This document shows, one piece after another, positions 9,601-23,881 of a stretch of 64,000 nt of DNA. The notes under the pieces are model-generated. The model was not told the origin of the DNA and searched no databases. It saw only the letters and a list, made by a program, of their open reading frames with translations. This stretch comes from Elusimicrobiota bacterium. Lineage in GTDB: Bacteria > Elusimicrobiota > Elusimicrobia > UBA1565. Both the position numbers and the translations under genes were made by a program. The first letter of the stretch is position 1; every line of letters starts with the position of its first letter. The DNA lies in the NCBI GenBank assembly GCA_016212885.1, contig JACRDO010000132.1:28779-92778 (forward strand), read 5' to 3'.

Positions 9601-12600
9601 TCCCGGGAGGACGTTCGAATACGACGGGACCCAGTGGTCTCAGTCCGGAACGTTCCCCAGCGACGTCCTGACTCTGAAGGAGTTCCGGGGCAAGCTTTAC
9701 GCCGGGCTGTCCGGGGGCTCGGTCTACTCGTTCGATGGGATAAGCTGGAACTTGGCCGCGTCTCTTCCGGCGGCCCGGGTCAACGCCTTGGCGGAGCATA
9801 ACGGGCGGCTCTACGCCGCGACCGGAGCCGAGGGCCAGATTTTCGCGTTCGACCCGGACGCCGGCGGCTGGTATGAGGTCTTTCGGGCCACTGAGCCGGA
9901 GTTCTTCTCCCTTAAGTCCTACAATGGGCGGCTCTTCGCGGGAGCGGGCCCGGACATCTACTCCTTCGATGGGAGCACCTGGACCGTGACGAACTGGATC
10001 GGAGGGTCGGCCCGCGCCTTCGAGGTCTACCGGGGCCGCCTCTACGCGGGCACGAACATCTCCGGGTATATCTACGCCTATGACGGCAGCGTCTGGACGC
10101 GTCCCTTGGACATCAGCGAGGATTTCAACCGGGCTCTCGGCGTCTTCGGCGGCCGCCTCTACCTCGGCGCCAGCCTGCCGAGCAACGGCCGGATCTACAT
10201 GTACGACGGCAACACCGGCCCCGGCGGGCTGCTCGTCTATACCCTGCCGACCCCGGCCGACTCGATCTACGCCATCGCCAGCTACGGGAACCGGCTCTAC
10301 CTCGGCGGCACGAGCCCCTCCGGCGCGAAGGTCTACGTCTCCACGCCTCTGGCGGTCAGCCTCACGGGCTTAGACGGCGCCAAAACGCCGGAACAACTCA
10401 AGATCACGGGGCTTAATCCGATCCAGTCCGTCAACGCGAACATCTGCAATGGGAACTGGGCCTGCACGGCCACCAACCAGGTCCGCTTCACGGCTGCGGA
10501 CCAAGCGGGCAACATCGGCCAAGCTGGGCCCTTCGCGATCCTGGTCGATCCGTCGCTTTCGCCTCCCACGGCGCTCTATCCGCCTTCCGGCTCATTCGTC
10601 CGCTCCAGCAGCCCCACGTTCGTATGGGCGGAGTCGAGCGCGATGTCGATCCACAACGTGCAGGTCTCCAGCCAGGCGGCTTTCACGAACCTGAGCCTCG
10701 ACAGCATCGCGAACACGCCCGCCTACACTTCTCCGGTTGCGCTTGCGAACGCCACCACCTATTATTGGCAGGTGCGCAGCCGCAGCCCAAGCGGCATCTA
10801 CTCGGCCTTTTCGGCAGTCAACGCCTTCGTCATGGACCTCAGCCGGCCCACGACCTCGGTGTTCCTCCATTTCGGTTCGACCGGAGGCCCTCTCGCAGAG
10901 AGCCAGTTCGGGAATCTGGCCGCAGGGGTGACGGTCGAGATCACTCTCCAGGATATCGTCTCCGGCTTGGACCGCGGGCCGAGGCGCCAGCCGGTGAGCG
11001 GCGCCGCGGCGCTCTATCCCTTCGACGAGGGCTTCGGCATGTACGCCTCGGGTCTCGGCGGGGAATACCGCCTCGCCTTCAGCTCCGGCGCGTCGTGGGC
11101 TCCAGGCCTCATCAGCTCCGCGGTCTTGACCGGCGGAGCGACCTATCTCTACAACGCCTCTCCAAACTACAACCCGGCCTGGCCCGCGGTCGGCCTGCCG
11201 ATCGCGGGCGGGACGAGGACAATCGAGGCCTGGATCTACCCGCTGGACGGGCAAGGAGGCGGCATACTGCATTACAGCGACTTCCGGCTCCACATCAGCG
11301 GCAGCTGCTCCGGCCCCGTTCCCGGCAACAGCTATCTCTGCGTGAATGCAAGCCAGGGGGCCGCGTATACCTTCACCCCCAGCCAATGGCACCACGTCGC
11401 CTACACCTATGCCGGAGGGACGCATACCCTCTACGCCGACGGAATTTTGCTGGGCTCCTTCCAGCAGATGCTCAATACTCCGGGGGCCGGGCCGATCTTC
11501 GTCGGGACAGCGACCGACTGCGGCGCATTCCGCGGCCGCATCGACGAGCTGCGGATTCTCGCCAAGGCGCTCTCGGCCGCGGAGGTGGACTCGGGCTATC
11601 GGCTTTCGGGCGCCTTCCGCGTGTCCTACTCCTCCGACGGGGGCGCCAACTGGACGGTCGTGACCGCCACGGCGCCGGCCTGGGGCCCGCACCTGGTCTT
11701 GAGCGGCCCGCCGGGGAGCACGGCCCCGCAGACCCTGAGGCTCGAGAACTTCTCGCTGGCGCAATCGACGATCCTGGCGACCGGGGCGTACGGCACGAAC
11801 CAGGTGGTCTTCTCGGTCTCGGACCAGGCAGGCAACGAGGCGACGGCAGGCCCCTTCACTGTCCTGGTGCAGACGTCCGTTCCGCAGCCCATATTGACTT
11901 CCCTGACCCCGCGCTCGACGGAGTCCATCTTCGCGACCGCCATCGCGACCGACCCCCTGAGCGGAGTCATGGAATACCGCTTCGAGGCGTCCCCCAACAA
12001 GACCTTCGCCCCGCCGGTCTCCACCTCTCCATGGGTGGCGGTGTCGACCTATCTTCCCACGGCGCTGCTGGGCTGGGCGTCCGCTTCCTCCTACACCTTC
12101 ACCGGGCTCGCCAGCGCGACGACTTATTACGTCCGCGTCACGGTCCACGACAACTTGTCGAACCTCTCGCCTCCCTCGGATGTGGGGAAAGTGGCGGGTT
12201 TCGCGGTGGACGCCGCCACCTCGACCTACGGGAGCGTGTTCTTCTCCACCAAGAGCGTCGCGCCGGCTTCAGCCCTGCAGAATACCGACGTGGCGATGCT
12301 GAAGTTCATGCTCGCCACGCCCCTCGGCTCCAGCTCACAGTTCTACTCGCTGACCGTGCGCAAGACCGGCACGGCTCCGGATGCGGCGATGCAGAAAGCC
12401 CTCATCGCAATAGACAACAACGGCGACGGGATCTACACCAAGGGCGTGGACGCGGTGCTGGCCGAGGCGCCGTTCACGAACTCGGTGGCGACCCTCAGCC
12501 TGGCCGCGGCCGGCAACTCCGAGAATCTGGGGCCGGCCCTGAAGACGTTCTTCATCGCCTACCGGGTGACGACGGACGCCCAGCCCGGCCTCACCGTGGG

Positions 12601-15600
12601 AGTCGACAACATCACGGAGGCGGATTTCGGCCTCCAGTTCCCCTCGCGCGCGGAAGGCCCATTCCCCACCAATGTCCCGCTGATCCCGATCGCCGACGGG
12701 CCCAACGCGCTGACCGTGACGGCCTTCAACCTCGCCCCGGCCGAGGTCCAGCCCAACACCCTGAACGTCGCGCTCCTGCGCCTGAGCGCCGCGACGGACA
12801 CCGGCACGAGCATCATCTCGACCATGACGTGGCGGCTGCAGGCGAGCCAGCCCTTCAACCAGCTCACGGGCCTCACGCTCTGGCGCGACAAGAACGGCAA
12901 CGGGCTCTTCGAGCCGGGCATCGACGAGAGGGTGACCAGCGGCAACGACTCCTTCACGAACGGATACTCGACGATGGCCCTGACCACCCCGGAGATATCT
13001 TCGCGGACGGTGAAGACGTCCGCGGTCAACTACTTCCTGAGCGCGAACGTGAGCGCGAGCGCCCCGCAGGGGACGACCTTCAGGATCGCGCTGTCCACTC
13101 CGCCGGACGTGCGTCTGGAGAACCCGCTCGATACCGTAAGCTTCACGCAGATCCCCATCATCACGAGCAGCTGCACCATCATACAGAACAACATCGTCTG
13201 GATCTCGACCACGGATCTCTCGCCGGGAGCGTACGGCCAGACTTACTTCCAGGGGAACCTCTATTCGGTGCTTCGCGCGACGCTGAGCGTGGACATCGGT
13301 TTCGCGGAGATCAACCAGGTCACGATGGACCGGACCGGCGACGCGCAGCAGGACGACGTCCAGTACGTGGCGGTTTACAGGGACCAGAATCTCGACGGCG
13401 GACCCCTGAACCCGGTGGTGGATGTGTTTCTCGGCTCTGCGATGTTCGATCCTCTTAAGAAGGCCACCATCGATATCACCACGGCGACGGTCGCCGCGGG
13501 CGCGACGACGGTGTTCTTCATCGCCTATCAGATCAACCCCGCAGCCAGCCCCGGCCGCACGCTCGGCGGCTCCATGACGAACTCGAGCTACTTCCATACG
13601 TCCAATCCCGCGAGCGTCGTTTCGTCGGTCACGATGGATGGGAGCTCCCTCTTTGAGATCAAGACGGCCACCGCGCAGATCGAGGCGACGCAGAACCAGA
13701 TGAAGATCCCGCTCGCGCAGTCCGCGGCCCCCGGCGCGATCGACCAGGTGGCCAACGACATCGGGATGCTGCGCGTCGACATGGTTTCCGACCGCAACAA
13801 CTTCAACTGGCTGAGCCTCATCGTGCGGAGCATCGGAACCGCGCTGGATTCCGACGTCCGGAACGTGCGCGTATTCCGGGACGACGGAAACGGCCTCTTC
13901 TCGGCGTCCTCGGACACCGCCATCAGCGACATCTCCCAGACCTTCACCGGGGGCCAGGTCAACATCCCGCTCTCCATCCCGCAGGCCGTCACCGGCTCGA
14001 CGCAGACCTACTTCGTGACGCTCAGCCTCAACCCCTCGGCCGTGCCGGGAAGGACCGTGGGGGTGGTGATCCCCTCGACGGCGAGCTTCAATGTTAGCTC
14101 GCCGAACAAGGTCTCCAGCCAGACCGCGCTCGGGCCGTTCGCGGGCGGCCCGGTGGCGATCAACCAATTCGCGAACACCATCGCGGTCTCTACCCGCGGC
14201 ATCACGCCCCCGCTCGGCGCGGTCCCGGGGGCGAGGAACGTCGGCCTGCTCGATCTGACGCTCAAGACCAATGTCTCGAACGCGGGCTGGGCGGGACTCA
14301 AGATCGACCAGGCCGGGAGCGCGTCGGACTCGGACATCACCGAGGTGAAGGTCTACTACGACCTCAACAACAGCGGCTTCTTCGACCCCGCAAACACCCA
14401 GCAGTATCTCCTGGTCAGCTCCACCGGGCAGCGCTTCGGGCAGGTCCAGGCCGGCAGCGTGGACATCGTCTTCCCGAGCACCCCCTCGCTGGGCCCGGCC
14501 CCGCAGAGGTATTTCGTAGCCGTGGACCTCGCCGACGACGCGACGCCGGGCAAGACGGTGGCCCTGCGCGCCATCAGCAAGGACTACTTCGTTCCGGTGG
14601 CGCCCAACCAATTCGGTCCGGTGAGCTTCAACTCCCAGCCGCCTATGGACCAGGTCGAGATCAAGGCTCCGCCGGCGCTGATGTACGTCCTTGGAACCAG
14701 CTCCGCGCCGGCCGAAGTCGCGCAGGGCACCGCGAACGTCGTGATGGCGGCGCTGAAGGTCTGGATGTCGAGCTACACGGGGCAATGGACCCAGCTCAGC
14801 GTGGACCGCTCCGGCGCGGGCATCGACTCGGACATCAGCGGGGTCAAGCTGTTCTACGACACCAACGGCAACGGCCGGCTCGACGTCATGACGGACGAGC
14901 GGATCAGCACGGCGAGCTTCATCGGGGGCACGGCCGCCCTGATGTTCTCGACCCAGACGATCACGACCAGCTCGAGGACCTACTACCTGACCTACGACCT
15001 CTCCATGACCGCGGTCGGAGACCACGCCGTGGGGGCCGCCATCAACGCCCCCGGCCTGCTGGCCGTGGCCATGCCCAACAGCGTATCGAGCGACAACTTC
15101 CCGTTCGCGTCGGCCGCCTCGAGGGTCGTCACCACACGCGCGGACCTCTTCGTCGTGGGCCAGAACAAGGCGCCGGGCATGCTGATACAGGGCGCCACGA
15201 ACCAGGTGATGCTCAGCCTTCAACTGAGCACGACGGAGCATGCCATCCTCTGGAGCGGGCTCACCGTGCGCTCCTTGGGCACGGCCGCGGACTCGGACAT
15301 CAGCAGCGTGCACATATGGAAGGACGTCAACGCAGACGGCTTCCTGGAGGCGGACATGGACCAGGACATGACCTCCGGGCTCAACGGATTCCTGGGCGGG
15401 TCCGCGGTTGTAAGCCTGATCACCGCGCAGACGATCAGCATGGCTCCCATGCGCTACCTCGTGACGGTGGACGTGGCCAGCTGCGCCTCGCCCTCCGCGA
15501 GCTTCGGGCTTACGCTGGCAGCGACGAACGCCTTCTCCGTGAACGCCCCCAACACGGTCGTGGACTCAGGCTTCCCGATCTCGTCGGTCGTCGTCTCGCT

Positions 15601-17077
15601 CAAGAAGAGGGCGGAGCAGCTTCTCGTTTCGCCCTCGGACCTCGTGCCGGCGACCGGGATCAACCAGGGACTCGAGGCCTCCGTCGCCAAGCTCGCCTTG
15701 AGAGCCTCGCGCAACAAGGTGGGCTGGACCCAGGTGAGGCTCGCCCGGATCGGGACCCTCAGCGATTCGGACATCGAGGAGGTCCGCCTCTATCGCGACG
15801 AGGACGCTTCCGGGGCCCTCAGCCCCGCGGATATCCTCATCGGCGCCGGAACCTACAACTCGGGCTCGGCGTCCATCGTGTTCGCCCCCGCCTTCGTGCA
15901 GACGATCACCCTCTCGACCCAGACCTACCTCGTGTCCTACAAGATCAAGCCCTCGGCGACCGTCAATGCCGTCGTCGGGCTCACCGTGGCAGAGTTCACG
16001 GTCGACAACCCGGACAGCGTCTCGCTGACGGGCCTTCCGTTCTCGACTTCGCTCGCGAAGATCCTCGATTCCCGAACGCCGAGCCGGCCCGTCGTGACGG
16101 TGGCTGACGGCGCGTTCAGCAGCAAGTCCGAATACCTGCAGTTCAACTGGCAGTCGAGCGTAGTGCTCGGGTATCTGGCGGGCGCCTTCTACGCGATCGG
16201 AACCACCACGGGAGGGACCGACTTGACGAATGGCTTCAAGCCGATCCGGGTCTCTGAGCTCTCCGTCCGAGCGACGGGCTTTGTCTTGCAAGACCAAACG
16301 ATGTACTACGTCTCCGTGAAGACCCAGTCGAACGAAGGCTGGTTCAGCCCCGTAGGCACCTCGAACGGGGTCTTCATGGACTTCGTCATCCCGCCGACCC
16401 CCGCGGCCAAGATCCACCCCCCCGGGGAGAGCACGCTTCGGGTCAGCTGGGGCTCGGTGACCGGCGGGCTCTCGGGCATCGCCGGCTACCGCATCGAGTA
16501 CCGCCGGGCGCAGAGCCCCGTGTGGTACAACGCGAAGACCAAGCAGCCGATTTCTGAAACCGGAGTCTCGGCAGCCGGAATGGGCGGGAAGGGGCTGCGC
16601 GCCGCGGCTGTCTCGCCCGATGAGCTCGTCACCGGAGTCTCGTACCAGGCCACCGACATGCCAAGCGGAACATTGTACGTGCGCATGCGCGCGTTTTCAA
16701 CCGCGGGCCTGGCCAGCGCGCCGACCGACCCGGAGAAGGTCCAGATGGGGCCGCCGGGGACGGCGGCCATCAGCCAGATATCCTGCGCTCCCAACCCGTT
16801 CGACTCTCGAACAAAGCATGGGTGCATCGTGTACACCCTCAGCCAGGATGCCGACGTGACCATCAGCATCTTCAATGTCTTCGGCGGCCTAATTAAGACC
16901 ATGTCGTATTCGGCCGGGTCCGCCGGCGGGCAGAAGGGGACCACAGATATCACGGCCTGTCCGGTGTTCTGGGACGGGACCGACGAGTCGGGACAGAAGG
17001 TCTCCAAGGGCATCTATCTGGCGGTCATCCAGTCCGGCGGGGCCAAGGAAATCCTGAAGATCGGCGTCATCCACTAG
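2..17077 (+). CDS. Giant secreted multi-domain surface protein (adhesin-like), 5'-partial, >5686 aa
   Basis: One uninterrupted frame runs from the window edge to TAG at 17075-17077. Codons 2-16 (AAKAA) continue the Kelch repeat pattern seen downstream, so the true start lies upstream of the window. Domain and repeat grammar is coherent along the whole length (see sub-features). Overlapping ORFs in other frames are Arg/Gly/Pro-rich artefacts. Confidence 0.9.
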   Translation, partial: AAKAAMTTARYSLAAAALSGKVYAVGGMGGTQKENEEYDPAANTWASKALMTTARNSLAAAAVGGKVYAVGGTGGTEKENEEYDPNVNTWASKTAMTTARSGLAAAAVGGKIYAVGGSGPSGANEEYDPATNGWTSKTALTIARSGLAAAAVGGKIYAVGGTNGVVLSSAAEYDPGSNTWSARAQMPTARQQLALAATGGKLYALGGIGGANNENKEYDPGFSQKFTGLTPNTLYTFKARGRNASGAETPETPAISTYTLALAPGGLVAASSFTNVASTGVRVNWSSGTPAGYNPIGTLYRLELATAASFTTLAGSSQTYNTYAGLTGLTPSTKPYFARVEAISGAGIPTSWLSLGSLSSGTLQVTISTFAGTAGNSYAIAWGDYDNDGNPDLAVANYGLNILLLRNNGNGTFAQSTILATAGNYTGIAWGDTDNDGLLDLAVAVNVGDEFILHNDGGGAFTPNTLTGSGGNSYAVAWGDYDNDGRLDLAVANDLAQDDYVARNNGNGTFAIVPLTQTLGNSRGIAWGDYNNDGYLDLAIGNTDKDVVIVRNNNGVSFSTFAVTGSGFANGGIAWGDYDKDGYLDLAFALNTGIVVLRNNGGDGTFAKNTISAPGSNAGVAWTDYNGDGRLDLAVSRSGGQAQILLRNDGGVSFTTVTFAGSAGGAVRGFSLGNFDLSGGPDIALANDGGSDELLLHNDDQLAHAAPGAPSAGFSATLQEYSLFSSSGILALSWGNGTDAETSTAALRYLLRIGTTVAGSSTTCKIPAKFGLDAGASGGSFLYSTRISSAAAGLRLILQKETTVYWAVMTQDGEGLRSAESAEQTAFLAAPGLVTDLRVSAIVSTGLGASSMTVTLQWTAPGDNGYSGAITNGAFEIRCSTTEAILSTSAYAAAQVAVSLATSVVPGALQTHSIPYLNAAATHYFALTMKDGFGARSALSNPATAQSYVLRLPASAGNLYGLAWGDYDGDGRPDMALSYYGGSVVLMHNDGSGAFTQTTVPGTSGSNTGVAWGDFNSDGRLDLAVAVDGSDEYVLRNNGDGTFTNVPVTGSGGRSYAVAWGDYDNDGLLDLAVANETAQDDLIARNNGNGTFTLVPLTQTIGNSRGAAWGDFNNDGFLDLAIANTDKDVVLARNLGNGTFSTGTIGGTGVSTAAAWGDYNNDNYLDLAVANSDGVALMRNKGDGTFAKVWIAGTAGNNAGLAWADFNNNGFLDLLVSRPGGSAQLLLRNNGDGTFTQTLLPLPGSNVVNVSWGDFDADGDLDIAAGSRGWIDAFIFRNDAALAHNAPAAPVSGFSATFQEYAAFSSTGVLTLSWGDASDVETPTSALNYLVRAGTVVSGSSATLKIPFNYGLDGAAGGGSFPYGTRVSALQRGLKFAGFSKGATIYWAVAAEDGEALRSGESAEQTANLTPPASVNNLAAAQDAAVETSSVSWVRLTWTVPGENGTSNPLLPGARYDLRWSTVAPVALESDYNRAPNQSLIPADGESPGATHTQLLAVTAGKTYYFAMTTLDSCNSRSGLSNAANIPMTAWLQEVITDAAPPAALQGDTTAFLKLRLWTNLGSLSWTKLRVRKLGTLPDAAVKNVAIYGDANTNGIFDSGDTAALYSGVPAVFASSAVTLAVQTVGQTISNSTRTYFLTLQLEPSYLPQDGSTAALKLDGEAFSVIGGGVLGTDFPGLLLDGIDDRVRASDSAVLDPPNQITLDAWVRTTDPGPNRSIITHSNASGTDGYRLWLNGSTCGAGVPTLFIGPSVLCANRGGSPVSIADDRWHQVSAVYSIAGGLGQLMFIDGEMLSTGPVTGSISDSASELGVGGPNNYAGNYLNGKIDEARISQTARYTSSFIPWRRSDTDYNTVLQYHFDAMDGTGTVVTDAAGQVTGILDGQARGYGRSTATVVVDAQDMMMSSATSLLPDTLYRNAVNVPVLKLQLWASQDNVIINRLSVAQTGTGASAGVANLRLYRDNGDGYFQPTLDQSLTLGQVFSVNKATFDLLGATPPAPQQVWSSTKTYFVVWDVTGGAETGKSLGLAISTDDFVLAGATDAVSTAAFPLRASTVPVVSARVYVTPETPPSAWVNVSSLVFIGDFTLGNVDHFYYLFDQNPGTQINGGGSETLWTIGKATATATADGSSWYFHVRAFDYLGQGGTQTDFGPYFVDRTRPTGASFVHFNSTGGALGQSQVNDLAQPVTAQLSVQDSGAGLNVVGPAPLAPSPGTVSLWRLDDTSGAVWKDSGPASISLSSVGVVSRGAGRFGSGVLLAGSGDLRSASPAGLPTGAVPRAIEAWINPVSTQGTLGLVSWGTSGAGTLMRFSMVSGQLAADMGGITVSGGPVLSTGVWQHAAFSYDGSAARLYLNGALAASQSVGALATALGTLFIGATESGGRFWGSIDEVRIMNSALADGQVYDDCTRGHPYFVAFSSSAGSSWQVVVATGAGAGARVGLDGAHGSTGPQTLKVKGLPLNVSTSSAAGALATNQVIFYQTDRAGNTNILGPYGILVDTNPQVAYSTPILPGDGMYTGARPWFEWTGPSTAITAGMGGANGLGGSFYLQVSSNDPTFADPNIVLSISTPAIMGDNTLPKVYGVYLSTHSLGEGATYYWRIRSKSFLDVLGPWGPWKSFVVDASTPAAANYRMYSATGGVVLEGQYTDLMLGVTAQTTVTDNLSGFSKSFRFDPAAGTVALWHFSERDGLAPKDASGNNNTAALLGISGGPPGYRTSPFGAGLRCGGSHVFRTSNAQFDFPANSNMTFEAWVNPDDVSGIQALGGVGSVTFPGGNWLLRISDGRLFFSNNTGFINSPAMMSAGVWQHIAMTLRGARVAFYINGVQVAAGLSGSGGNSGGPSVQPFTLCAAVDNDGVTYQSPYSGMIDEVRVLNYAADPLQIAADYAATLSGIYAVEYSTTAGASWIVVSATAPASGWAHLELGGSEGSVGPEAWSVRNLQLVHSTSAAIGYQATNQIRFSVPDRAGNTRLSGPYAAIVDTTVAAAVSTPSYPANGAFLTQQPNFLWSGPSTKTASGMGLAASYFLEAAADPAFASPVISISTPVIIQSTFAAATFGAYLSTYTLMDATTYYWRVRSRDFLGLLSPPLSVSSFVTDLGAPAGSAFRSFNSTGGATAEDLVNNLTSNVTAYVTFQDPGSGLKVSPAAGAMPFGVIYSTTGGAGNSAWVDGGRTAEGGLPESWWDPTVATITALATFQSRLYAGAAGPGRTFEYDGTQWSQSGTFPSDVLTLKEFRGKLYAGLSGGSVYSFDGISWNLAASLPAARVNALAEHNGRLYAATGAEGQIFAFDPDAGGWYEVFRATEPEFFSLKSYNGRLFAGAGPDIYSFDGSTWTVTNWIGGSARAFEVYRGRLYAGTNISGYIYAYDGSVWTRPLDISEDFNRALGVFGGRLYLGASLPSNGRIYMYDGNTGPGGLLVYTLPTPADSIYAIASYGNRLYLGGTSPSGAKVYVSTPLAVSLTGLDGAKTPEQLKITGLNPIQSVNANICNGNWACTATNQVRFTAADQAGNIGQAGPFAILVDPSLSPPTALYPPSGSFVRSSSPTFVWAESSAMSIHNVQVSSQAAFTNLSLDSIANTPAYTSPVALANATTYYWQVRSRSPSGIYSAFSAVNAFVMDLSRPTTSVFLHFGSTGGPLAESQFGNLAAGVTVEITLQDIVSGLDRGPRRQPVSGAAALYPFDEGFGMYASGLGGEYRLAFSSGASWAPGLISSAVLTGGATYLYNASPNYNPAWPAVGLPIAGGTRTIEAWIYPLDGQGGGILHYSDFRLHISGSCSGPVPGNSYLCVNASQGAAYTFTPSQWHHVAYTYAGGTHTLYADGILLGSFQQMLNTPGAGPIFVGTATDCGAFRGRIDELRILAKALSAAEVDSGYRLSGAFRVSYSSDGGANWTVVTATAPAWGPHLVLSGPPGSTAPQTLRLENFSLAQSTILATGAYGTNQVVFSVSDQAGNEATAGPFTVLVQTSVPQPILTSLTPRSTESIFATAIATDPLSGVMEYRFEASPNKTFAPPVSTSPWVAVSTYLPTALLGWASASSYTFTGLASATTYYVRVTVHDNLSNLSPPSDVGKVAGFAVDAATSTYGSVFFSTKSVAPASALQNTDVAMLKFMLATPLGSSSQFYSLTVRKTGTAPDAAMQKALIAIDNNGDGIYTKGVDAVLAEAPFTNSVATLSLAAAGNSENLGPALKTFFIAYRVTTDAQPGLTVGVDNITEADFGLQFPSRAEGPFPTNVPLIPIADGPNALTVTAFNLAPAEVQPNTLNVALLRLSAATDTGTSIISTMTWRLQASQPFNQLTGLTLWRDKNGNGLFEPGIDERVTSGNDSFTNGYSTMALTTPEISSRTVKTSAVNYFLSANVSASAPQGTTFRIALSTPPDVRLENPLDTVSFTQIPIITSSCTIIQNNIVWISTTDLSPGAYGQTYFQGNLYSVLRATLSVDIGFAEINQVTMDRTGDAQQDDVQYVAVYRDQNLDGGPLNPVVDVFLGSAMFDPLKKATIDITTATVAAGATTVFFIAYQINPAASPGRTLGGSMTNSSYFHTSNPASVVSSVTMDGSSLFEIKTATAQIEATQNQMKIPLAQSAAPGAIDQVANDIGMLRVDMVSDRNNFNWLSLIVRSIGTALDSDVRNVRVFRDDGNGLFSASSDTAISDISQTFTGGQVNIPLSIPQAVTGSTQTYFVTLSLNPSAVPGRTVGVVIPSTASFNVSSPNKVSSQTALGPFAGGPVAINQFANTIAVSTRGITPPLGAVPGARNVGLLDLTLKTNVSNAGWAGLKIDQAGSASDSDITEVKVYYDLNNSGFFDPANTQQYLLVSSTGQRFGQVQAGSVDIVFPSTPSLGPAPQRYFVAVDLADDATPGKTVALRAISKDYFVPVAPNQFGPVSFNSQPPMDQVEIKAPPALMYVLGTSSAPAEVAQGTANVVMAALKVWMSSYTGQWTQLSVDRSGAGIDSDISGVKLFYDTNGNGRLDVMTDERISTASFIGGTAALMFSTQTITTSSRTYYLTYDLSMTAVGDHAVGAAINAPGLLAVAMPNSVSSDNFPFASAASRVVTTRADLFVVGQNKAPGMLIQGATNQVMLSLQLSTTEHAILWSGLTVRSLGTAADSDISSVHIWKDVNADGFLEADMDQDMTSGLNGFLGGSAVVSLITAQTISMAPMRYLVTVDVASCASPSASFGLTLAATNAFSVNAPNTVVDSGFPISSVVVSLKKRAEQLLVSPSDLVPATGINQGLEASVAKLALRASRNKVGWTQVRLARIGTLSDSDIEEVRLYRDEDASGALSPADILIGAGTYNSGSASIVFAPAFVQTITLSTQTYLVSYKIKPSATVNAVVGLTVAEFTVDNPDSVSLTGLPFSTSLAKILDSRTPSRPVVTVADGAFSSKSEYLQFNWQSSVVLGYLAGAFYAIGTTTGGTDLTNGFKPIRVSELSVRATGFVLQDQTMYYVSVKTQSNEGWFSPVGTSNGVFMDFVIPPTPAAKIHPPGESTLRVSWGSVTGGLSGIAGYRIEYRRAQSPVWYNAKTKQPISETGVSAAGMGGKGLRAAAVSPDELVTGVSYQATDMPSGTLYVRMRAFSTAGLASAPTDPEKVQMGPPGTAAISQISCAPNPFDSRTKHGCIVYTLSQDADVTISIFNVFGGLIKTMSYSAGSAGGQKGTTDITACPVFWDGTDESGQKVSKGIYLAVIQSGGAKEILKIGVIH
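1090..4590 (+). repeat. Internal tandem duplication of a ~580-aa module (FG-GAP/VCBS propeller plus Fn3-like tail) in the giant CDS
   Basis: Copy 1 spans about 1090-2860 and copy 2 about 2870-4590. Each has 8-9 FG-GAP units (AWGDYDNDG.LDLAVAN....L.RNNGNGTF) followed by AH(A/N)AP.AP..GFSAT(L/F)QEY...LSWG...AL.YL.R.GT. Some stretches are nearly identical between copies (LTGSGGNSYAVAWGDYDNDGRLDLAVAN vs VTGSGGRSYAVAWGDYDNDGLLDLAVAN). The period is about 1740 nt. Confidence 0.8.
6465..11880 (+). repeat. Four copies of a ~465-aa super-repeat (Ig-like / LamG / Ig-like / Fn3-like) in the giant CDS
   Basis: Units start near 6465, 7858, 9272 and 10840, each opening with F..(F/Y).STGG........(N/D)L...VTA...(V/F)QD..SGL. 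Next comes a LamG/ConA-like block (..(E/D)AW(I/V)NP....W(Q/H)H.A..Y.G....LY.NG.......(I/G).IDE(V/L)R(I/V)). Then come (Y/F).V.YS...G..W.VV...TNQ(V/I).F...D.AGN....GP....VD and P..G.......P.F.W.GPS....YYW(R/Q)(I/V)RS. In the third unit the LamG block is replaced by a beta-propeller. Confidence 0.7.
9540..10345 (+). other. Second beta-propeller-like region (about 8 blades of ~40 aa) replacing LamG in super-repeat unit 3
   Basis: Recurrent (F/Y).(G/N)(R/K)LY(A/L)G......G.(I/V)Y.(F/Y)DG..W units, e.g. FRGKLYAGLSGGSVYSFDGISW, YRGRLYAGTNISGYIYAYDGSVW and FGGRLYLGASLPSNGRIYMYDG. Confidence 0.6.
12230..16060 (+). repeat. Array of 8 tandem ~160-aa modules, each with an embedded D.N.(D/N)G..D Ca-loop-like motif; family not recognised
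   Basis: Period is 460-500 nt. Each unit has (V/A).(M/L)L(K/R)(F/L).L........W..L.V...GT..D.D(I/V)..V.(L/V)(Y/W).D.N.(D/N)G.(F/L)(D/E)....D......F......(L/V)......(I/V)......TYF(V/L). Loop motifs sit near 12410, 12880, 13375, 13870, 14350, 14850, 15310 and 15790. Two more diverged copies lie near 4660-5000 and 5760-6130. Confidence 0.7.
16780..17074 (+). other. C-terminal FlgD-Ig-like / T9SS-type sorting domain (CTD) of the giant protein
   Basis: The terminal ~95 aa read CAPNPFDSRTKHGCIVYTLSQDADVTISIFNVFGGLIKTM.....WDGTDESGQKVSKGIYLAVIQSGGAKEILKIGVIH. This matches the NPF...(I/V).Y.L.....V...I(F/Y)...G.L(V/I)..L......WDG.D..G..V..G(I/V)Y signature of FlgD_ig / Por secretion tail domains. Confidence 0.7.
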
Positions 17078-17140
17078 CACCCCTGAGAAGCGCTGAAATA
17101 TCCTGATTTTTTCGAGCCCCGGAATTCCGAAGTTTCCTCA

Positions 17141-17158
17141 TGATTTCTTCGTGATTTA
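17141..17158 (+). promoter_or_regulatory. Direct repeat TGATTTC-N4-TGATTTA (11-bp periodicity) upstream of the barrel gene; candidate winged-helix (OmpR-type) regulator site
   Basis: TGATTT starts at 17141 and 17152, and a third copy starts at 17104. The repeats lie in the only AT-rich gap (17078-17195) between the giant gene and the downstream cluster, about 40-55 nt upstream of the ATG at 17196. Confidence 0.25.
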
Positions 17159-17195
17159 AGCCGATCCGCCGCTAAACTAATAGCGGGGACGGACT

Positions 17196-18773
17196 ATGTT
17201 CGCAAGGTTTATTCCATTGGCGCTTCTGGCTCTGGCGCTGCGGGCCTCGCCCGCGTGGGCCCAGGCGATCGGAGGCCAGCCCGGCGAGATATTCTCCTTC
17301 GGGGCCGGGGCCCGGGCGCTCGCCATGGGCTCGGCCTACACGGCCGTGGTCAACGACGTATCTTCGGTCTACTACAACCCCGCCGGGCTCGGGCTTCTGC
17401 CGGCGCGGGAGATCTCCCTCATGCGGGCGTTCCTCTACGGGGATGCGACCTACGACTACATCGCCTACGCGCAAAACAACCGCAAGAACGCCGGCGGCTG
17501 GGGCGCCGAGTTCATCCAGTTCAAGGTCGGCGGGGCGAGCGGGCGCGACCAGGACAACAACGAGACCGGGCAGTTCGGCTACTCTGAAAGAGCCTTCGGC
17601 CTCGCGGCAGCCTGGCGCGGGCTCCTGCACCCGCGGCTCTCCCTCGGCGCCAAGGTGAAGATGATGCAGCGCGGCTTCAGCGGCGCCGGCAACGCCGCCT
17701 CCGACAGGCTCTTTGGCATCGACTTCGGCGCGCAGATGGGGCCGTGGGTCGGCGAGCGCCTCATGCTCGGACTCATAGTGCAGAATGTGATGGGCTTCAA
17801 GCAGGGCGACACGGAGGATTCCCTCAAGCTGCTGCTGCGCCTCGGCGCGGCCTACAAGGTCATCGGGCCGCTCTCCGTCGCGGCCGATGTCTCCAACAAC
17901 AGGGAGTTCCGCGTGGGGACGGAGTACTCCATCGGGTTCCTGGCTCTCCGGGTCGGCCTCGCCCAGCAGGGCATGACCTTCGGCGGAGGGCTGCTCTTCA
18001 AGAACCGTTATTCCGTGGACCTGGCGATGCTCAACCATCCGACCCTCGGCATGTCGCAGAGGATCTCGCTCGGCTACCGGTTCGCCGGCGCCGCGGGCGC
18101 GGGCGAGAAGTCGAAGAAGATGCGGTTCTACGCCGAGGAGTTCCTCGCCAACGCCCAGGCCGAGCTGAAGAAGAGGAACTACCTCAAAGCCCTCAACGAC
18201 TTCTCCGCCGGCCTCGGCATCGACCCCAAGCGCGGGGCCGAGTGGCGCTCGAAGACCGACCGCCTGCGCCGGCTCCTCAAGCGGATGGGCCTCGAGGCCC
18301 ATCCGGAGGACAGCGCCACGCTCGCAGAGGACTCGCAGCCCGCCGTCGTAGCTTTCGCGGCCATAGAATCCTACATGGGCCGGGAGGAGGAGCGGGCGAT
18401 GACTCTGGCCCACGCGGCGGTCGGCCTGGATACCGCCAAGGGCGCCTTCGGACGGCTGCTCGACTCGCTGGCAGCGCTGACGGGACATGCGATCCAGCGC
18501 GACCAGCTCCTGCCGCCGCTGCGGCTGGCGGAGTTCAAGATGAAGCGGGCCATGGACGCCATCTATGCCCGCAGGTTCGAGGCGGCCGTGACCCTGCTTC
18601 GCGAAGCCCTCTGGCTCGACCCCGGCAACGTCATGGCCTGGACCCGGCTCGGCTCGGCCTTCTTCGCCTCCGGGGACCGCCCGAAGGCCGCGGAGGCGTA
18701 CCGAGAGGCGCTCCGGCTCAACCCGGCCGATGAGAAGCTGAGGCAGTTCGTCAGGTCCCAGGGGTTGGAGTAA
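17196..18773 (+). CDS. Outer-membrane beta-barrel protein, PorV/PorQ (FadL)-like, with C-terminal TPR-like domain
   Basis: Signal peptide MFARFIPLALLALALRASPAWAQ. The N-terminal motif GARALAMGSAYTAVVNDVSSVYYNPAGLG is typical of FadL/PorV/PorQ-type barrels. An amphipathic strand pattern runs to about residue 300 (..QRISLGYRF). A ~220-aa helical TPR-like tail follows (AWTRLGSAFFASGDRPKAAEAYREALRLNPAD). Confidence 0.55.
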   Translation: MFARFIPLALLALALRASPAWAQAIGGQPGEIFSFGAGARALAMGSAYTAVVNDVSSVYYNPAGLGLLPAREISLMRAFLYGDATYDYIAYAQNNRKNAGGWGAEFIQFKVGGASGRDQDNNETGQFGYSERAFGLAAAWRGLLHPRLSLGAKVKMMQRGFSGAGNAASDRLFGIDFGAQMGPWVGERLMLGLIVQNVMGFKQGDTEDSLKLLLRLGAAYKVIGPLSVAADVSNNREFRVGTEYSIGFLALRVGLAQQGMTFGGGLLFKNRYSVDLAMLNHPTLGMSQRISLGYRFAGAAGAGEKSKKMRFYAEEFLANAQAELKKRNYLKALNDFSAGLGIDPKRGAEWRSKTDRLRRLLKRMGLEAHPEDSATLAEDSQPAVVAFAAIESYMGREEERAMTLAHAAVGLDTAKGAFGRLLDSLAALTGHAIQRDQLLPPLRLAEFKMKRAMDAIYARRFEAAVTLLREALWLDPGNVMAWTRLGSAFFASGDRPKAAEAYREALRLNPADEKLRQFVRSQGLE

Positions 18774-18823: not shown

Positions 18824-21331
18824 ATGGACGCTGTCATCATCGTCCTGATCCCGGTGCTGTTCCTGACGCTGGCGGCCAGCATGCTGGTCGTCAGCCAGGT
18901 TTCCGGCTTCTTCCAGTCCAACAAGTACTCCCGCAAGCGCCAGCAGGACCGCATGGAGATCCAGCGGTTCATGGCCCAACTGGCCGGCGCGCAGAGCCAG
19001 GTCTTTGCGCGCAGCAAGGAGCTCGAGCGGCTCTCGGCGAACCTGCAGCTCAGCAACCAGGAGCTGGCCCGGCTCAACAGCATGAAGACGAAGTTCCTGT
19101 CGATGGTTGTCCACGATATGAGGACCCCGCTTGCCTCCATCAAGGGGTTCGGCGAAATGCTCAGCCGCCAGACGCTCCCGGCGCAGCAGACGAAGTATGT
19201 GAACTATATCGTCAGCGGCACGGACCAGATCAACCAGCTGATGGCCGACCTCACGGACCTCGCGGTCATCGAAGCAGGCAAGCTCAAAATGGAAAAGCAG
19301 CCATTCGCCTTGTCCGACATGGTCAATGACCTCGTGCCCGGGATTGGCCTGCAGGCGCAGAAGAAGGGCGTGATTTTCACGGCGCCGGAGCCGCCGCGGG
19401 GGATCACCGTAATCGGGGACAGCTTCCGTCTGCGCCAAGCGCTCCAGAACTTCCTCACCAACGCGGTCAAATTCACCCCCGCGGGGGGAAAAGTCGAGCT
19501 GAGGGTCAGCGTGGGCCCGCGGGGCGCGCTGTTCCAGGTCAAGGACACGGGCCCGGGCATCCACGCCTCCGAGCGCAAGCGCATCTTCGAGAAGTTTTAC
19601 CAGTCGCAGTTCGGGGACCCGAAGGCGCGCCAGAAGGGCTGGGGGCTCGGCCTCTCGATCGCGCAGGAGATCATCCGCTCGCACCAGGGGGAGATGGGGG
19701 TGGATTCCGCCGGGCTCGGCAAGGGCGCCACCTTCTGGTACCGCATCCCGCTCAAGCCCTCCAGGATGGCGGCCTACGCGCTCGCAAAGACCGCGGCGGC
19801 CGTCCTCCTGCTGGCCCTGCTCCTGCCGGGGGCCCGGGCCCAGCAGACGCTCCCGATCGAGGAGAAGGCGAAGTTCGAGAAATCCCTCGAGGACCGCGCC
19901 AACACGATCCTGCTCCACATCCTGGGGCCCAACCGCGGGCGTGTCGTAGTCGACGCCACGCTCGACTTCACCCGCATCGAGAAGTTCGACGTCAAGAGCG
20001 GAGCCGTATCGCCTGACCGGGAGACCCTCTACCTCTGGGAGAAGGTGGGAGCCCAATCGGGCGGCCAGGACCTGCTCCCGGGCATCCCGCCCCAGGAGCA
20101 GCTGCCGAACGCGAACCTGGCGCGCTCCTACGAGCGGCAAAACTCCTTCCCGACGGCCTTTATCAAGAGACTCAAGGTGACGGTTATCTTGGACGGCGCT
20201 GTCGGCGCCGACCAACGCAAGATCATCACGGATGCCCTGACGGAGGCTCTCGACCTCAAGAAAGATCGGGGAGTGGATGCAAACGGCTTCACGCTCAAAG
20301 ACGAAATGCTGATCGTTCCCGCCACCTTCGCCCCCGCATGGAAGACGGTCTGGTACACCCCGGAATCCGCAAGCCTCCTCTTCAAATACGCGCTCATCAG
20401 CCTGATGACGCTGATCACCCTCATCGTCGTCGCGGCCTGCTTCCTGAAGCTCGCGGAGGCGATGGACTCGATGGCGCAGGCGCAGGCCCATCAGCTCCAG
20501 ATGGACTTCGGCCAGCAGGGCGCCGACCTCGCCGGGAAGGAAGAGGAGGAGAAGAAGAAGAAGGAGGAGGAGGCCAAAGCCGAGAGCGCGGAGGCCGCCT
20601 CCACCAAGATCGTCTTCAACGTCAAGGTGGAGCAGATCGAGACGCTCATCGAGATGGTGCGCAGCCAGGACGCGGAGAACATCTCCCTCATCGCCGCGCA
20701 CCTCCCGCCCGACGTCAAGAAGGCGTTCCTGGCCAAGCTCCCGCCGAGCGTCTACAGCGAGGTGATCTTCTATCTCGGCCGCGTGCGCTTCATCGACCAG
20801 GAGGTTGTCTCCACCGTCAAGGACGAGCTGGAGCGGCGCCTGGAGAGCGCGGTCGGCGGCCGGTCGAACCTCCTCGGCATGATCGAGGCCTCGGACCTCA
20901 AGTCCAAGCGCGAGCTCCTCAAGCTGCTCGAGGAGCGCGACCCCGACCTTGCGCGGCAGCTGCGCGAGCAAATCCTGCTCTTCGAGGACCTCTCGGACCT
21001 CGAGGAGAAGGACTGGTCCTTGGTCTTCTCGGTCGTCACGCTCGAGGAATGGGCCTTCGCGCTCTACGATGCCCCGGAGGATCTGGTCGAGGCGCTCAAG
21101 AGCCAGATGCTTCCGAAGACCTGGGCCATCCTGTCCCAGATGATGCAGGTGGGCCGTCCCTCGGAAAGGGCCATCGAGGAGGCGCACGAGCGCATCGTCA
21201 ACTCGGTCTGGAAGCTGGTTCAGGACGGCCGCATCACCAACCCCATCACCCGCCGCATCGAGCGCATGGCCGCCCGGCCGAAGGAAGAGGGCCCTCCCCC
21301 CTTGGTCGAGGGCGCCGCGGAGCTGGGCTAG
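18824..21331 (+). CDS. Fusion protein: membrane-anchored histidine kinase + FliF RBM3-like periplasmic ring domain + FliG (middle and C-terminal)-like domain
   Basis: The frame is open from TTG 18812 / ATG 18824 to TAG 21329-21331 with no internal stop. N-terminal TM helix (AVIIVLIPVLFLTLAASMLVV), coiled coil, H-box FLSMVVHDMRTPLASI, N-box NAVKFT, G1 DTGPGI, G2 GWGLGLSIA. From M at 19766 there is a TM or signal-like helix. Next comes LEDRANTILLHILGPNRGRVVVDATLDF...IKRLKVTVILDG...TM, colinear with FliF RBM3, beta-collar and TM2. After a Glu/Lys-rich linker, a region aligns end to end with FliG_M and FliG_C (ISLIAAHLPPDVKKAFLAKLPPSVYSEVI...; LLKLLEERDPDLARQLREQILLFEDL...WAFALYDAPEDLVEALKSQM). 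Confidence 0.8.
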   Translation: MDAVIIVLIPVLFLTLAASMLVVSQVSGFFQSNKYSRKRQQDRMEIQRFMAQLAGAQSQVFARSKELERLSANLQLSNQELARLNSMKTKFLSMVVHDMRTPLASIKGFGEMLSRQTLPAQQTKYVNYIVSGTDQINQLMADLTDLAVIEAGKLKMEKQPFALSDMVNDLVPGIGLQAQKKGVIFTAPEPPRGITVIGDSFRLRQALQNFLTNAVKFTPAGGKVELRVSVGPRGALFQVKDTGPGIHASERKRIFEKFYQSQFGDPKARQKGWGLGLSIAQEIIRSHQGEMGVDSAGLGKGATFWYRIPLKPSRMAAYALAKTAAAVLLLALLLPGARAQQTLPIEEKAKFEKSLEDRANTILLHILGPNRGRVVVDATLDFTRIEKFDVKSGAVSPDRETLYLWEKVGAQSGGQDLLPGIPPQEQLPNANLARSYERQNSFPTAFIKRLKVTVILDGAVGADQRKIITDALTEALDLKKDRGVDANGFTLKDEMLIVPATFAPAWKTVWYTPESASLLFKYALISLMTLITLIVVAACFLKLAEAMDSMAQAQAHQLQMDFGQQGADLAGKEEEEKKKKEEEAKAESAEAASTKIVFNVKVEQIETLIEMVRSQDAENISLIAAHLPPDVKKAFLAKLPPSVYSEVIFYLGRVRFIDQEVVSTVKDELERRLESAVGGRSNLLGMIEASDLKSKRELLKLLEERDPDLARQLREQILLFEDLSDLEEKDWSLVFSVVTLEEWAFALYDAPEDLVEALKSQMLPKTWAILSQMMQVGRPSERAIEEAHERIVNSVWKLVQDGRITNPITRRIERMAARPKEEGPPPLVEGAAELG

Positions 21332-22459: not shown

Positions 22460-23197
22460 ATGGACATTACGACACTCTCCGGCATCGTCGGCGTCTTAGC
22501 CATGGTGCTCATCGGGGGCTTCACCGGCGAGCTCTCCGCGGTCTTCCTGAACGCGCACGGCATCGTGATCGTCTTCGGCGGGACCGCCGTCGCCATGCTC
22601 ATCAATACGCCGCTGCGCTATGTTCGGGAGACGCTCCTGGCGTTGGCGGAGCTCTTTCGGGGAGACCGCTTCAGCGACCCGGGCGAGCTGATCCCGGTGC
22701 TGGTGCGCCTTTCCGAGCAGGTCCAGGCGCACGGACTCGGGGCCCTGCGGGGCATCGACGAAAGGGCCGCGGGCGGCTTCCTCGGCCAGGCCGCCACCAC
22801 TGCGATGGAGTACAACAACCCCGACTTCGTCCGGCGCGTGCTGGAGACCGAGGTCAACAACAGGGTGGACCGGGCCAACGAGGTCATCAACGTGGTCCGC
22901 ACCATGGGCGTTGTCGCACCGATGTTCGGCCTGCTCGGCACCCTCATCGGCATCGTGCGGGTCATGGCCGTGCTCACCGACCCGGTGAAGGTCGCCCCGG
23001 CCATGGCTGTCGCCATCACCACGGCCTTCTACGGCATCGCCTTGGCCAACCTGGTGGCGGTCCCCATGGCCGGCAAGATGCGCTTCAGGCTGTGGGAGGA
23101 GATCAAGGTCCGGGCGATGGTCATTGAGGGCGTCATCGGCATGATGCAGGGCACGGTCCCCCTGGTGCTCGAGCGCCGCCTGCAGGCTTTCAAATAG
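22460..23197 (+). CDS. motA: MotA/PomA-family stator channel protein (4 TM)
   Basis: 245 aa. It has TM1-TM2, a ~100-aa cytoplasmic loop, then TM3-TM4 with MGVVAPMFGLLGTLIGIV and APAMAVAITTAFYGIALANLVAVPMAGKM, the MotA-type signature. The start abuts the previous stop (0-nt gap). Confidence 0.85.
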   Translation: MDITTLSGIVGVLAMVLIGGFTGELSAVFLNAHGIVIVFGGTAVAMLINTPLRYVRETLLALAELFRGDRFSDPGELIPVLVRLSEQVQAHGLGALRGIDERAAGGFLGQAATTAMEYNNPDFVRRVLETEVNNRVDRANEVINVVRTMGVVAPMFGLLGTLIGIVRVMAVLTDPVKVAPAMAVAITTAFYGIALANLVAVPMAGKMRFRLWEEIKVRAMVIEGVIGMMQGTVPLVLERRLQAFK

Positions 23198-23200: not shown

Positions 23201-23881
23201 ATGGCCGTCTACCGCTTCAGGAAGGAGGAGCTCGAGGGACATCTCAACAGGAACGCCCTCTGGGCGATCGTCTACGGGGACATGATGAGCTACCTCATGA
23301 TCCTCTTCCTCCTCCTGCTCTCCACCGCGCTCATGAAGAACGTCAAGAAGGAGGATAGGCCGGAGGTCGAGAAGTCCCTCATGGAGATCCAGGTGGTCTT
23401 CGGCGGCAAGGTGGACAAGGCGTACGAGGAGAAGAGGTCGCGCGACGAGAAATTCTTCAAGATCTCCGAGGCGCTGAAGGGGATGCAGAGCGCCAACGTC
23501 AGCGTCATCGCCACCGAGAAGCTCGTCCGCGTGCAGCTCGGGGAGGGCGTTCTCTTCGACTCCGGCAGCGCGGAGCTCAAGGAGAGCGCCGCGCCGCTGC
23601 TGGAGCCTATCGCCAAGCAGATGCTCGTCCCCGACAACCAGATCCGCGTCGAAGGCCACACCGACACCGTCCCTATCCGAAAAGGCAAGTACAAGTCCAA
23701 CTGGGAGCTCTCCATGGCCCGCGCCTATTCGGTCGTCCGGACGCTCGAGGGGATGGGCGTCAAGCCGGAGCGGCTCTCCGGCATCGGCTACGGCGAGTAC
23801 CGCCCGGTCGCCGCCAACGACACCCCTGAGAACAAGGCCAAGAATCGCCGCATCGAGATCAACCTGCTGCGGTCGGAATAG
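23201..23881 (+). CDS. motB: MotB-family stator protein with OmpA-like peptidoglycan-binding domain
   Basis: The N-terminal TM carries the conserved Asp (WAIVYGDMMSYLMILFLLL). The C-terminal OmpA-like domain reads VLFDSGSAELK...IRVEGHTDTVP...SNWELSMARAYSVVRTL...GYGEYRPVA.N.T.....NRRIEI. Confidence 0.85.
   Translation: MAVYRFRKEELEGHLNRNALWAIVYGDMMSYLMILFLLLLSTALMKNVKKEDRPEVEKSLMEIQVVFGGKVDKAYEEKRSRDEKFFKISEALKGMQSANVSVIATEKLVRVQLGEGVLFDSGSAELKESAAPLLEPIAKQMLVPDNQIRVEGHTDTVPIRKGKYKSNWELSMARAYSVVRTLEGMGVKPERLSGIGYGEYRPVAANDTPENKAKNRRIEINLLRSE

Follow-up and report, generated by a model that had tools for sequence, protein, structure and literature searches.

What would bring a giant surface protein, an outer-membrane barrel and relatives of the flagellar rotor and stator together in one stretch of bacterial DNA? 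Such an arrangement is found in 64,000 nucleotides of the metagenome-assembled genome of an Elusimicrobiota bacterium (assembly GCA_016212885.1, contig JACRDO010000132.1, positions 28,779 to 92,778 of the forward strand), the whole of which we call the window. Here, an open reading frame (ORF) for a giant protein, ending in a C-terminal domain (CTD) like those of type IX secretion systems (T9SS), is followed by a gene for a PorV-like barrel fused to tetratricopeptide repeats (TPR) and then by motor genes. The gene linkage points to an undescribed proton-driven envelope machine, whose parts would be the CTD-bearing giant protein, the barrel-TPR protein, an inner-membrane FliF-FliG rotor (here fused to a kinase), a coiled-coil protein and a MotA/MotB stator. 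That a functional, conserved module exists seems very probable to us. We lean slightly towards a reading in which the giant protein and the barrel-TPR protein both belong to a conserved module that spans the envelope and whose motor powers the export or movement of the adhesin; for the mechanism by itself, in which the motor drives the cargo, the chances appear about even.

The evidence that carries this reading is comparative. We searched with hidden Markov models (HMMs) built from the window proteins and sampled 80 loci, one genome per species, which are referred to below by their numbers. Because the iterated HMMs of the TPR tail and of MotA also caught hits from other phyla that were generic TPR or ExbB/TolQ-like proteins, the counts were restricted to the 28 loci in which the whole 525-aa barrel-TPR query aligned. 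FliG was encoded in all 23 of the barrel-TPR loci with at least 3.6 kb of downstream DNA, as a FliF(RBM3)-FliG(M,C) fusion (RBM, ring-building motif) that often carries an N-terminal histidine kinase, whereas it was encoded in none of the TPR-less PorV-like loci in our table (Poribacteria, WOR-3, Zixibacteria, Krumholzibacteria, FCPU426, Aerophobetes and others). MotA and MotB were both present in 18 of the 20 barrel-TPR loci with at least 8 kb downstream, L003 and L010 being the exceptions. Surveying barrel-TPR fusions beside CTD proteins, as the preliminary description of the window had suggested, we found a CTD-ending ORF directly upstream and on the same strand in 14 of 25 loci with at least 1.5 kb of upstream DNA (16/27 including L087 and L088). 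The idea of a dedicated cargo-barrel pair, put forward from the window, is supported by this adjacency and by a CTD sub-signature private to these loci (see below), and the idea that the adjacent motor may be the energy source by the strict company of FliG; both are matters of genomic linkage, from which a coupling may be inferred.

The module is also coherent in its gene order. Loci whose barrels share 63, 49, 41, 40 and 31% identity with that of the window (L001-L005) have one common order: a large CTD-ending protein, the barrel-TPR protein, the FliF-FliG protein with or without the kinase, an uncharacterised protein of variable length, in some cases FlbD, which is encoded in distant modules, and then MotA and MotB. 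The barrel and FliG genes overlap by 4 nt at one extreme and are 76 nt apart at the other. Some genomes contain two full modules, namely JACPXC01 (L007 and L087) and CAYFRM01 (L012 and L036), with a separate giant protein, barrel, FliG and MotAB in every one; we therefore argue that the parts form matched sets. The upstream CTD protein, where its size could be read, has from about 700 aa (L036, L037) to 16,036 aa. The latter protein, which ends in a CTD, lies upstream of the barrel-TPR gene of L088 (JGI Ga0209978_10000025, L088:1-9725, as given in the record), and the second module of the L007 genome has a CTD-ending upstream protein of 6,438 aa (L087:1-9929).

At 90% identity, the barrel-TPR architecture falls into 304 clusters, almost all of which carry the label Elusimicrobia, and at least 71 full-length profile matches were found among the best 150 cluster representatives at 50% identity. 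The preliminary description had regarded the TPR tail as an unusual addition to the barrel. This did not hold, as the tail is the norm in a family that is nearly confined to Elusimicrobiota. The FliF-FliG fusion has a similar distribution: in the profile search it was found only in Elusimicrobia-labelled or unlabelled records, save for a single partial protein, labelled NC10, from a contig of 2.3 kb, and the scores of the fusions lie far from those of ordinary FliG.

The giant ORF has no in-frame stop from base 2 of the window to base 17077, so that it is cut by the window edge, with more than 5,691 aa visible. Pfam finds Kelch, 13 FG-GAP, four Laminin_G_3, fn3, GEVED and FlgD_ig domains; only the Kelch region, at the window's left edge, contains tandem repeats, and an NCBIfam scan of the protein named no known adhesin family. 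A complete orthologue in L002 begins with a Sec signal peptide, which implies a two-step export. The FlgD-Ig/Por-tail-like end described for the window protein was confirmed. The isolated last ~95 aa reach 34.2 bits against FlgD_ig (PF13860), for a gathering score of 27, and the last 500 aa reach 30 bits. Against the T9SS type A sorting domain model TIGR04183, the isolated CTD scores 21.0 bits (E 2.4e-4), just below the cut-off of 23, and against Por_Secre_tail (PF18962) 20.2 bits, below 27. An HMM built from the related loci gives the window CTD 78 bits, and the expected motifs are in place, with PNPFDSR near the start, GIY (GxY) and a basic-hydrophobic end, KIGVIH.

An alignment of 58 CTDs from related loci gave the consensus YPNPF...IYd..G.LV...WDG.N..G..VAsGvY...KI.VIk. 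At E <= 0.01, TIGR04183 matches 55 of them (best E-value 5.7e-11), FlgD_ig 50 and Por_Secre_tail 42; cargo proteins of the TPR-less loci reach up to 35 bits. The motor-linked CTDs have a mean identity of 39% among themselves, against 27% to other CTDs, and share a private signature, PNPFDSR ... terminal K[IV]GVIH. This signature is also borne by small stand-alone genes of L005, L006 and L007, which consist of a Sec signal peptide and a CTD only (~90-110 aa after signal removal); no such gene is present in the window. Their products could plug the barrel, hold its place for the cargo or compete for it.

Exactly 118 nt downstream, as previously stated (stop at 17077, start at 17196), begins the gene for the barrel, whose product has GAGARALAMG and YYNPAGLG at residues 36-66, and the described fusion of this signature to TPR-like helices was borne out. 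The NF033709 model (PorV/PorQ family) aligns end to end (profile 7-326 of 326, residues 33-296) with 80.8 bits against a cut-off of 90. UPF0164 matches with 27.7 bits (gathering score 21.4), and Pfam TPR_1, TPR_2 and TPR_16 match at residues 446-516. The scores against the equivalog HMMs for PorV and PorQ (NF033710/NF033711) are 19.4 against 250 and 49.7 against 220, both below cut-off, and the PorV2 model gives 60 bits for a cut-off of 325. No PorP/SprF model of Pfam or NCBIfam matched the protein at E <= 1, and the Toluene_X/FadL model (PF03349) reached 12.6 bits against 29.7, with an alignment limited to residues 34-79. Judged by these profiles, the barrel belongs to the PorV/PorQ superfamily, but is neither a PorV or PorQ orthologue nor a member of FadL or PorP/SprF. 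The NCBI name of two more distant homologues (P0094, P0119) is likewise 'PorV/PorQ family protein'.

An AlphaFold2 model built on 29 homologues (mean predicted local distance difference test, pLDDT, 88.5) predicts a hatch (residues 30-67), a barrel whose 14 beta-strands, by DSSP, span 72-295, and an arm of ~215 aa made of 12 helices (307-521). The strand number, which it had been proposed to predict, is therefore even. In a mature outer-membrane barrel protein the N-terminus is periplasmic, and with an even number of strands the TPR arm would be periplasmic too. The top Foldseek match in the Protein Data Bank (PDB) was PorV of the F. johnsoniae SprA translocon complex (6h3i_F, E 1.8e-9, TM-score 0.62 normalised by target length), with TodX, TbuX and FadL ranking next; a sequence profile of the family matched PorV (E 1.1e-9) as the sole barrel among the matches listed.

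The MotAB/FliG-like module noted after the barrel gene was found on the same strand with the corresponding Pfam domains. The gaps 3' of the barrel gene are 38, 3, 0, 3 and 16 nt, the genes for the regulator and the major facilitator superfamily (MFS) transporter overlap, and the module genes are all intact, with G+C at third codon positions (GC3) of 0.88-0.94. In the fusion protein, for which NCBI gives a start at 18824, Pfam finds HisKA, HATPase_c, FliG_M and FliG_C and, weakly, YscJ_FliF_C (PF08345), which many homologues also carry. Modelled helices and hydrophobic segments fit a layout of transmembrane (TM) helix, kinase, TM helix, periplasmic domain, TM helix and FliG, with a charged linker between the third TM helix and FliG_M/FliG_C. 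As the top 50 Foldseek matches of the full model were only histidine kinases, this search was replaced by a sequence profile of the C-terminal half, which matched Thermotoga FliG (1lkv) with E 1.6e-21; the periplasmic part matched the RBM3 region of FliF (9yh6, 8z5s, 6scn). No FliG_N domain was detected in the fusion protein. The coiled-coil protein encoded next varies from 246 to about 1,230 aa across related loci.

Both stator subunits are full-length. MotA aligns over its full length to flagellar MotA (9luc) and also to PomA, with E 2.2e-32, and the window encodes a MotA/MotB pair with both the channel Asp and the channel prolines. The contact residues differ from those of the flagellum. 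The equivalents of R90 and E98 of MotA are altered (H/A and R; ARREGVLALE vs QAHGLGALRG), and the acidic torque-helix residues of FliG are replaced (SQMMQ vs KDELE). The two sides of the rotor-stator interface may have been re-wired together. The EHPQR motif of FliG binds FliM, and it is not conserved in the window FliG (EHPQ -> QDAE). FliM/FliN, the type III export gate, rod, hook and filament are absent from the window and from seven related loci annotated with Pfam (L001-L005, L087, L088). The anti-phage system Zorya was considered and ruled out, as PADLOC gave a generic ZorB (MotB) match only and no ZorA, ZorC, ZorD or ZorE.

The OmpR-type regulator likely partners the rotor-fused kinase. 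Regulators of this kind also lie beside the modules of L001, L002 and L005. In other genomes, the module is flanked by a CheY-like single-domain receiver and an OmpR-type regulator (L002:1963-3077, L005:16925-18012), which, together with the rotor-fused kinase, hints at phospho-control of the machine; the window has the OmpR-type gene only. When positions 16800-26800 were scanned for sigma-70 promoters and terminators, neither a promoter nor a plus-strand terminator turned up between the genes of the module, which supports an operon only weakly, and an Rfam scan of 16500-26500 gave no matches.

Cargo-barrel pairs are found beyond the motor modules. In several candidate phyla, most TPR-less PorV-like loci have a CTD protein immediately upstream, and private pairs of CTD cargo and PorV-like barrel are therefore widespread; the version with TPR and motor is essentially confined to Elusimicrobiota. 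Among nine upstream proteins of TPR-less loci that were scanned, one is a true PorU sortase (Coatesbacteria L056, 428.7 vs 420 bits) and the other eight have no PorU body; in four of these, the non-CTD domain is a metalloprotease, NHL repeats, an M36-like region or a Kelch/GlxA-like region. Poribacteria have porU-porV pairs (L053, L054, L060, L062, L064, L072, L077) with PorU-like proteins of ~2,100 aa, so that T9SS attachment components exist in Poribacteria and Coatesbacteria. An identity of the upstream CTD protein with PorU holds for these two groups and was rejected for the window and every Elusimicrobia locus, no PorU-like match being found in any Elusimicrobia locus sampled. Some TPR-less barrels from WOR-3, Krumholzibacteria and Fibrobacteraceae (L034, L050, L066, L070, L073, L075, L080) have a weak FlgD_ig/CTD-like hit at their own C-terminus (~19-23 bits), and in L066, L073 and L075 a MotA/ExbB-family hit lies 2.9-3.8 kb downstream; these barrels may represent a further tailed variant that is energised in a different way.

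How could the parts work together? The giant protein would leave the cytoplasm by Sec, as the signal peptide of the complete orthologue suggests. Its type-A-like CTD might then be recognised by the dedicated PorV-family barrel and be held at, or helped across, the outer membrane, to judge from the homology to PorV and the gene pairing. The periplasmic TPR arm could touch the FliF-like ring or the stator, given that TPR and FliG occur together in every locus that could be scored. Proton flow through MotAB, whose channel residues are conserved, would turn or strain the FliG ring, and the resulting work might export the giant adhesin, put it under tension or move it laterally, making the module a functional analogue of SprB/SprF/GldLM built from flagellar parts. 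The rotor-fused kinase and the OmpR-type regulator might report or set the state of the machine. A bolder version, which we offer only tentatively, is that the flagellum-less Elusimicrobiota have rebuilt flagellar rotor and stator proteins (FliF-FliG, MotAB and, in some lineages, FlbD) into a trans-envelope rotary machine that moves a CTD-anchored adhesin of 2,000-16,000 aa. Its filament-less output would be a TPR-gripped PorV-type barrel carrying the adhesin, which the machine would reel out or move, with the kinase built into the rotor to report its state, and it would amount to a previously unknown surface motility or active adhesion.

Several points weigh against the motor-and-cargo reading. 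The linkage between the parts is genomic throughout, and physical contact is only inferred. Folded cargo would not fit through a hatch-bearing barrel of 14 strands, so that a separate translocon may be needed, and none was found. Because the charge pairs of FliG and MotA and the EHPQR motif are unconserved, torque of the flagellar type is not assured, and a normal periplasm may be wider than the TPR arm and an RBM3-type ring can bridge. The CTD and the barrel of the window both fall below the curated cut-offs, of TIGR04183 and NF033709, respectively. Adjacency of the cargo is frequent, not obligatory, since in 11 of the 27 barrel-TPR loci no CTD protein is encoded next to the barrel, and no MotAB lies within 10 kb in L003 (40% identity) and L010.

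Among the other explanations, the one that survives best would make the barrel an ordinary PorV paralogue that merely shuttles or anchors the giant protein, which a T9SS encoded elsewhere in the genome would export; FliG and MotAB would serve an unrelated function, for example in a pilus or an envelope process, and only share the operon. The agreement of 55 of the 58 CTDs with the type A model would be expected under this explanation, and so would the true porU-porV pairs of Poribacteria and Coatesbacteria and the presence, in the same Elusimicrobia genome as the L002 module, of a TPR-less barrel with CTD cargo and no motor (L059). It leaves unexplained, however, that the TPR tail is found solely in the company of FliG and that each duplicated module has kept its own motor. 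The reported absence of PorK/L/M/N and Sov-like genes from the window was borne out, no T9SS core gene being found among its 32 genes scanned against Pfam, nor in the seven annotated loci; the Elusimicrobia loci lack PorU-like proteins as stated above, and our text searches of the literature turned up no report of a T9SS in Elusimicrobia or Elusimicrobiota. We regard this explanation as unlikely.

Alternatively, the machine might sense rather than act. Flagellar stators respond to load, and MotAB could be the load-sensitive element of a module that is neither a secretion nor a motility engine: the adhesin, barrel and TPR arm would pass surface load to the FliF/FliG ring, and the kinase would phosphorylate the OmpR-type regulator to control expression. 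Such a role would fit a kinase without a periplasmic sensor domain that is fused directly to the rotor in most family members, and the OmpR-type and CheY-like regulators that flank the module. Against this, the kinase is missing or separately encoded in L004, L087, L088 and L003, which keep the barrel-TPR and FliF-FliG proteins (and, as sub-lineages, MotAB). Since several sub-lineages can do without the kinase, the conserved core is not signalling. An ion-conducting MotAB would also be costly to retain in a pure sensor, and we find a purely sensory role quite improbable. A plain FadL-type importer of hydrophobic substrates beside decaying flagellar relics by coincidence, an idea to which the ranks of FadL, TodX and TbuX just under PorV in the fold search and a phylum without flagella (bioRxiv 10.1101/2022.07.08.499144) might lend some colour, is already disfavoured and, in our judgement, very improbable, because the barrel fails the Toluene_X model and matches PorV best, CTD proteins adjoin related barrels in most sampled loci of several candidate phyla, the module genes are all intact and have kept their GC3, and an order kept down to ~30% identity and the duplication of the module both indicate selection, not decay.

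The motor-driven module that we favour can be set beside known systems. PorV (F. johnsoniae SprA-PorV, PDB 6H3I chain F; P. gingivalis PorV and PorQ) is likewise a 14-strand FadL-like outer-membrane barrel, genetically paired with proteins bearing type-A-like CTDs, and the PorV/PorQ family model spans the window barrel from end to end. In contrast to PorV, the window barrel has a 215-aa periplasmic TPR arm, comes from Elusimicrobiota, outside the Fibrobacteres-Chlorobi-Bacteroidetes (FCB) group, is linked to FliG/MotAB instead of GldLM/PorLM, and has no SprA/Sov, PorU or PorKLMN partner in the window or the annotated loci. The closest parallel in logic is SprB-SprF/GldLM gliding (PMC9143113), in which a giant adhesin stands beside its own retaining barrel and a proton-driven inner-membrane motor; in Bacteroidota, type-B CTD cargo is anchored by adjacent PorP-like barrels (PMC9143113). 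Here, the barrel is of the PorV/PorQ rather than the PorP/SprF type, the CTD is type-A/FlgD_ig-like rather than type B, a FliF-FliG rotor and MotAB stand in the place of GldL/GldM, and no GldK/N ring is seen.

With the flagellar basal body the module shares FliG_M, FliG_C, a FliF RBM3-like domain, full-length MotA/PomA and MotB and, in distant modules, FlbD. It departs from the flagellum in the direct fusion of FliF to FliG with FliG_N undetected, in the kinase on the rotor, in the unconserved EHPQR and torque charges, and in the absence from the annotated loci of FliM/FliN, export apparatus, rod, hook and filament genes. SiiA and SiiB of Salmonella are MotB- and MotA-like. Published accounts (bioRxiv 10.1101/641415; PMC6272769) describe SiiA as an auxiliary protein to secretion of the giant non-fimbrial adhesin SiiE by the type I system of Salmonella pathogenicity island 4 (SPI-4). 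There too, stator-type proteins are tied to the secretion of a giant adhesin, but the exit is a type I secretion system (T1SS) with ABC transporter, TolC-like channel and C-terminal T1SS signal, and FliG/FliF, a PorV-like barrel and a CTD of the T9SS kind are lacking. The Agl-Glt complex of Myxococcus (PMC9120999) also resembles our module in that a stator-homologous proton channel powers an envelope-spanning complex, including outer-membrane barrels and TPR proteins, that moves surface adhesion sites, but its motor AglRQS is of the TolQR type without a FliG/FliF rotor, its outer-membrane parts and adhesin differ, and there is no CTD-PorV pairing. Every part of the proposed machine belongs to a known superfamily and its logic is like that of SprB/SprF/GldLM, whereas the combination is undescribed; our literature searches (Elusimicrobiota with T9SS or sorting domain, FliG with PorV, T9SS distribution) found no description of the module.

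The features are collected in Table 1. The window has a G+C content of ~66%, its gene map was obtained with a filter on third-codon-position GC, and all domain and family matches of the elements described lie far beyond chance by E-value. The remaining genes are housekeeping genes: ATP synthase, RecG, RelA/SpoT, LpxB, an amidohydrolase and a GGDEF response regulator. In the F-type ATP synthase operon (36175-44275), a gene for an NAD-dependent epimerase/dehydratase (40389-41519) lies between atpA and atpG, and a 115-aa ORF (42510-42857) between atpG and atpD. Four further genes have no Pfam match and good coding statistics.

Table 1. Positions of the features in the window and, where a locus number is given, in related loci.
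Feature	Position	Strand	Basis or remark
Giant secreted/surface protein, C-terminal 5,691 aa, N-terminus outside window	2..17077	+	Stop-free frame; Pfam
CTD, T9SS type-A/FlgD_ig kind	16790..17074	+	FlgD_ig, TIGR04183 and Por_Secre_tail scores; motifs
Intergenic spacer, 118 nt, GGGGA Shine-Dalgarno-like site ~8 nt before ATG	17078..17195	.	Sequence; no terminator-like site on the plus strand
Outer-membrane PorV/PorQ-superfamily barrel fused to predicted periplasmic TPR domain, 525 aa	17196..18773	+	Profiles, AlphaFold2, Foldseek
Signal peptide (MFARFIPLALLALALRASPAWA, followed by Q)	17196..17261	+	Translation; low pLDDT in model
N-terminal hatch (GARALAMG...YYNPAGLG) and 14-strand beta-barrel, residues 30-296	17283..18083	+	DSSP on model; NF033709
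All-helical TPR-like arm, 12 helices, residues 307-521, predicted periplasmic	18114..18758	+	Model; TPR hits
Fusion of TM, histidine kinase, TM, periplasmic FliF RBM3-like domain, TM and FliG_M/FliG_C, 839 aa	18812..21331	+	Pfam, profile, model
Cytoplasmic HisKA + HATPase_c kinase core	19082..19756	+	Pfam; Foldseek matches GacS, HK853
Periplasmic FliF ring-building-motif-like domain, ~180 aa, between two TM helices	19844..20386	+	Hydrophobicity, model, profile
FliG_M + FliG_C	20642..21238	+	Pfam
Coiled-coil protein rich in Ala/Pro, no recognised family, 374 aa	21335..22459	+	No Pfam match; position conserved in related loci
MotA/PomA-type stator subunit	22460..23197	+	MotA_ExbB, MotA_N; alignment to 9luc
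MotB-type stator subunit: plug, TM helix with Asp, OmpA-like peptidoglycan-binding domain	23201..23881	+	Pfam, alignment
OmpR/PhoB-type response regulator	23898..24593	+	Trans_reg_C; full-length alignment to MtrA, acceptor Asp and Lys kept
MFS transporter	24577..25938	+	
Stand-alone mini-CTD genes	L005:9604-9996, L006:7415-7807, L007:9534-9938		Between giant cargo gene and barrel-TPR gene
Gene without Pfam match, 918 aa	30527..33283	-	
Gene without Pfam match, 586 aa	52807..54567	+	
Gene without Pfam match, 542 aa	54564..56192	+	
Gene without Pfam match, 430 aa	48226..49518	-	

If the coupling is real, parts of the flagellar rotor and stator would here, as the first such case, work on an outer-membrane cargo barrel in the absence of a flagellum, and what Bacteroidota achieve with SprB, SprF and GldLM would have a second solution of independent construction. 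It would mean that CTD-PorV recognition is usable outside the canonical T9SS, and it would provide a natural minimal FliF-FliG/MotAB rotor, without FliM/N, rod and export gate, for studying torque and the evolution of the flagellum. In many candidate phyla, CTD cargo comes with a private PorV-like barrel, which suggests that the dedicated shuttle or anchor is a common but overlooked design. For the Elusimicrobiota themselves, the magnetotactic genomes examined had no flagellar structural genes, while magnetotactic and most free-living members have 'numerous' motAB, flbD and fliG homologues, and the role of MotAB in Gld-less members was called 'unclear' and, for twitching, 'enigmatic' (bioRxiv 10.1101/2022.07.08.499144). 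The proposed machine, if true, would account for the motAB, fliG and flbD genes that non-flagellated Elusimicrobiota have kept.

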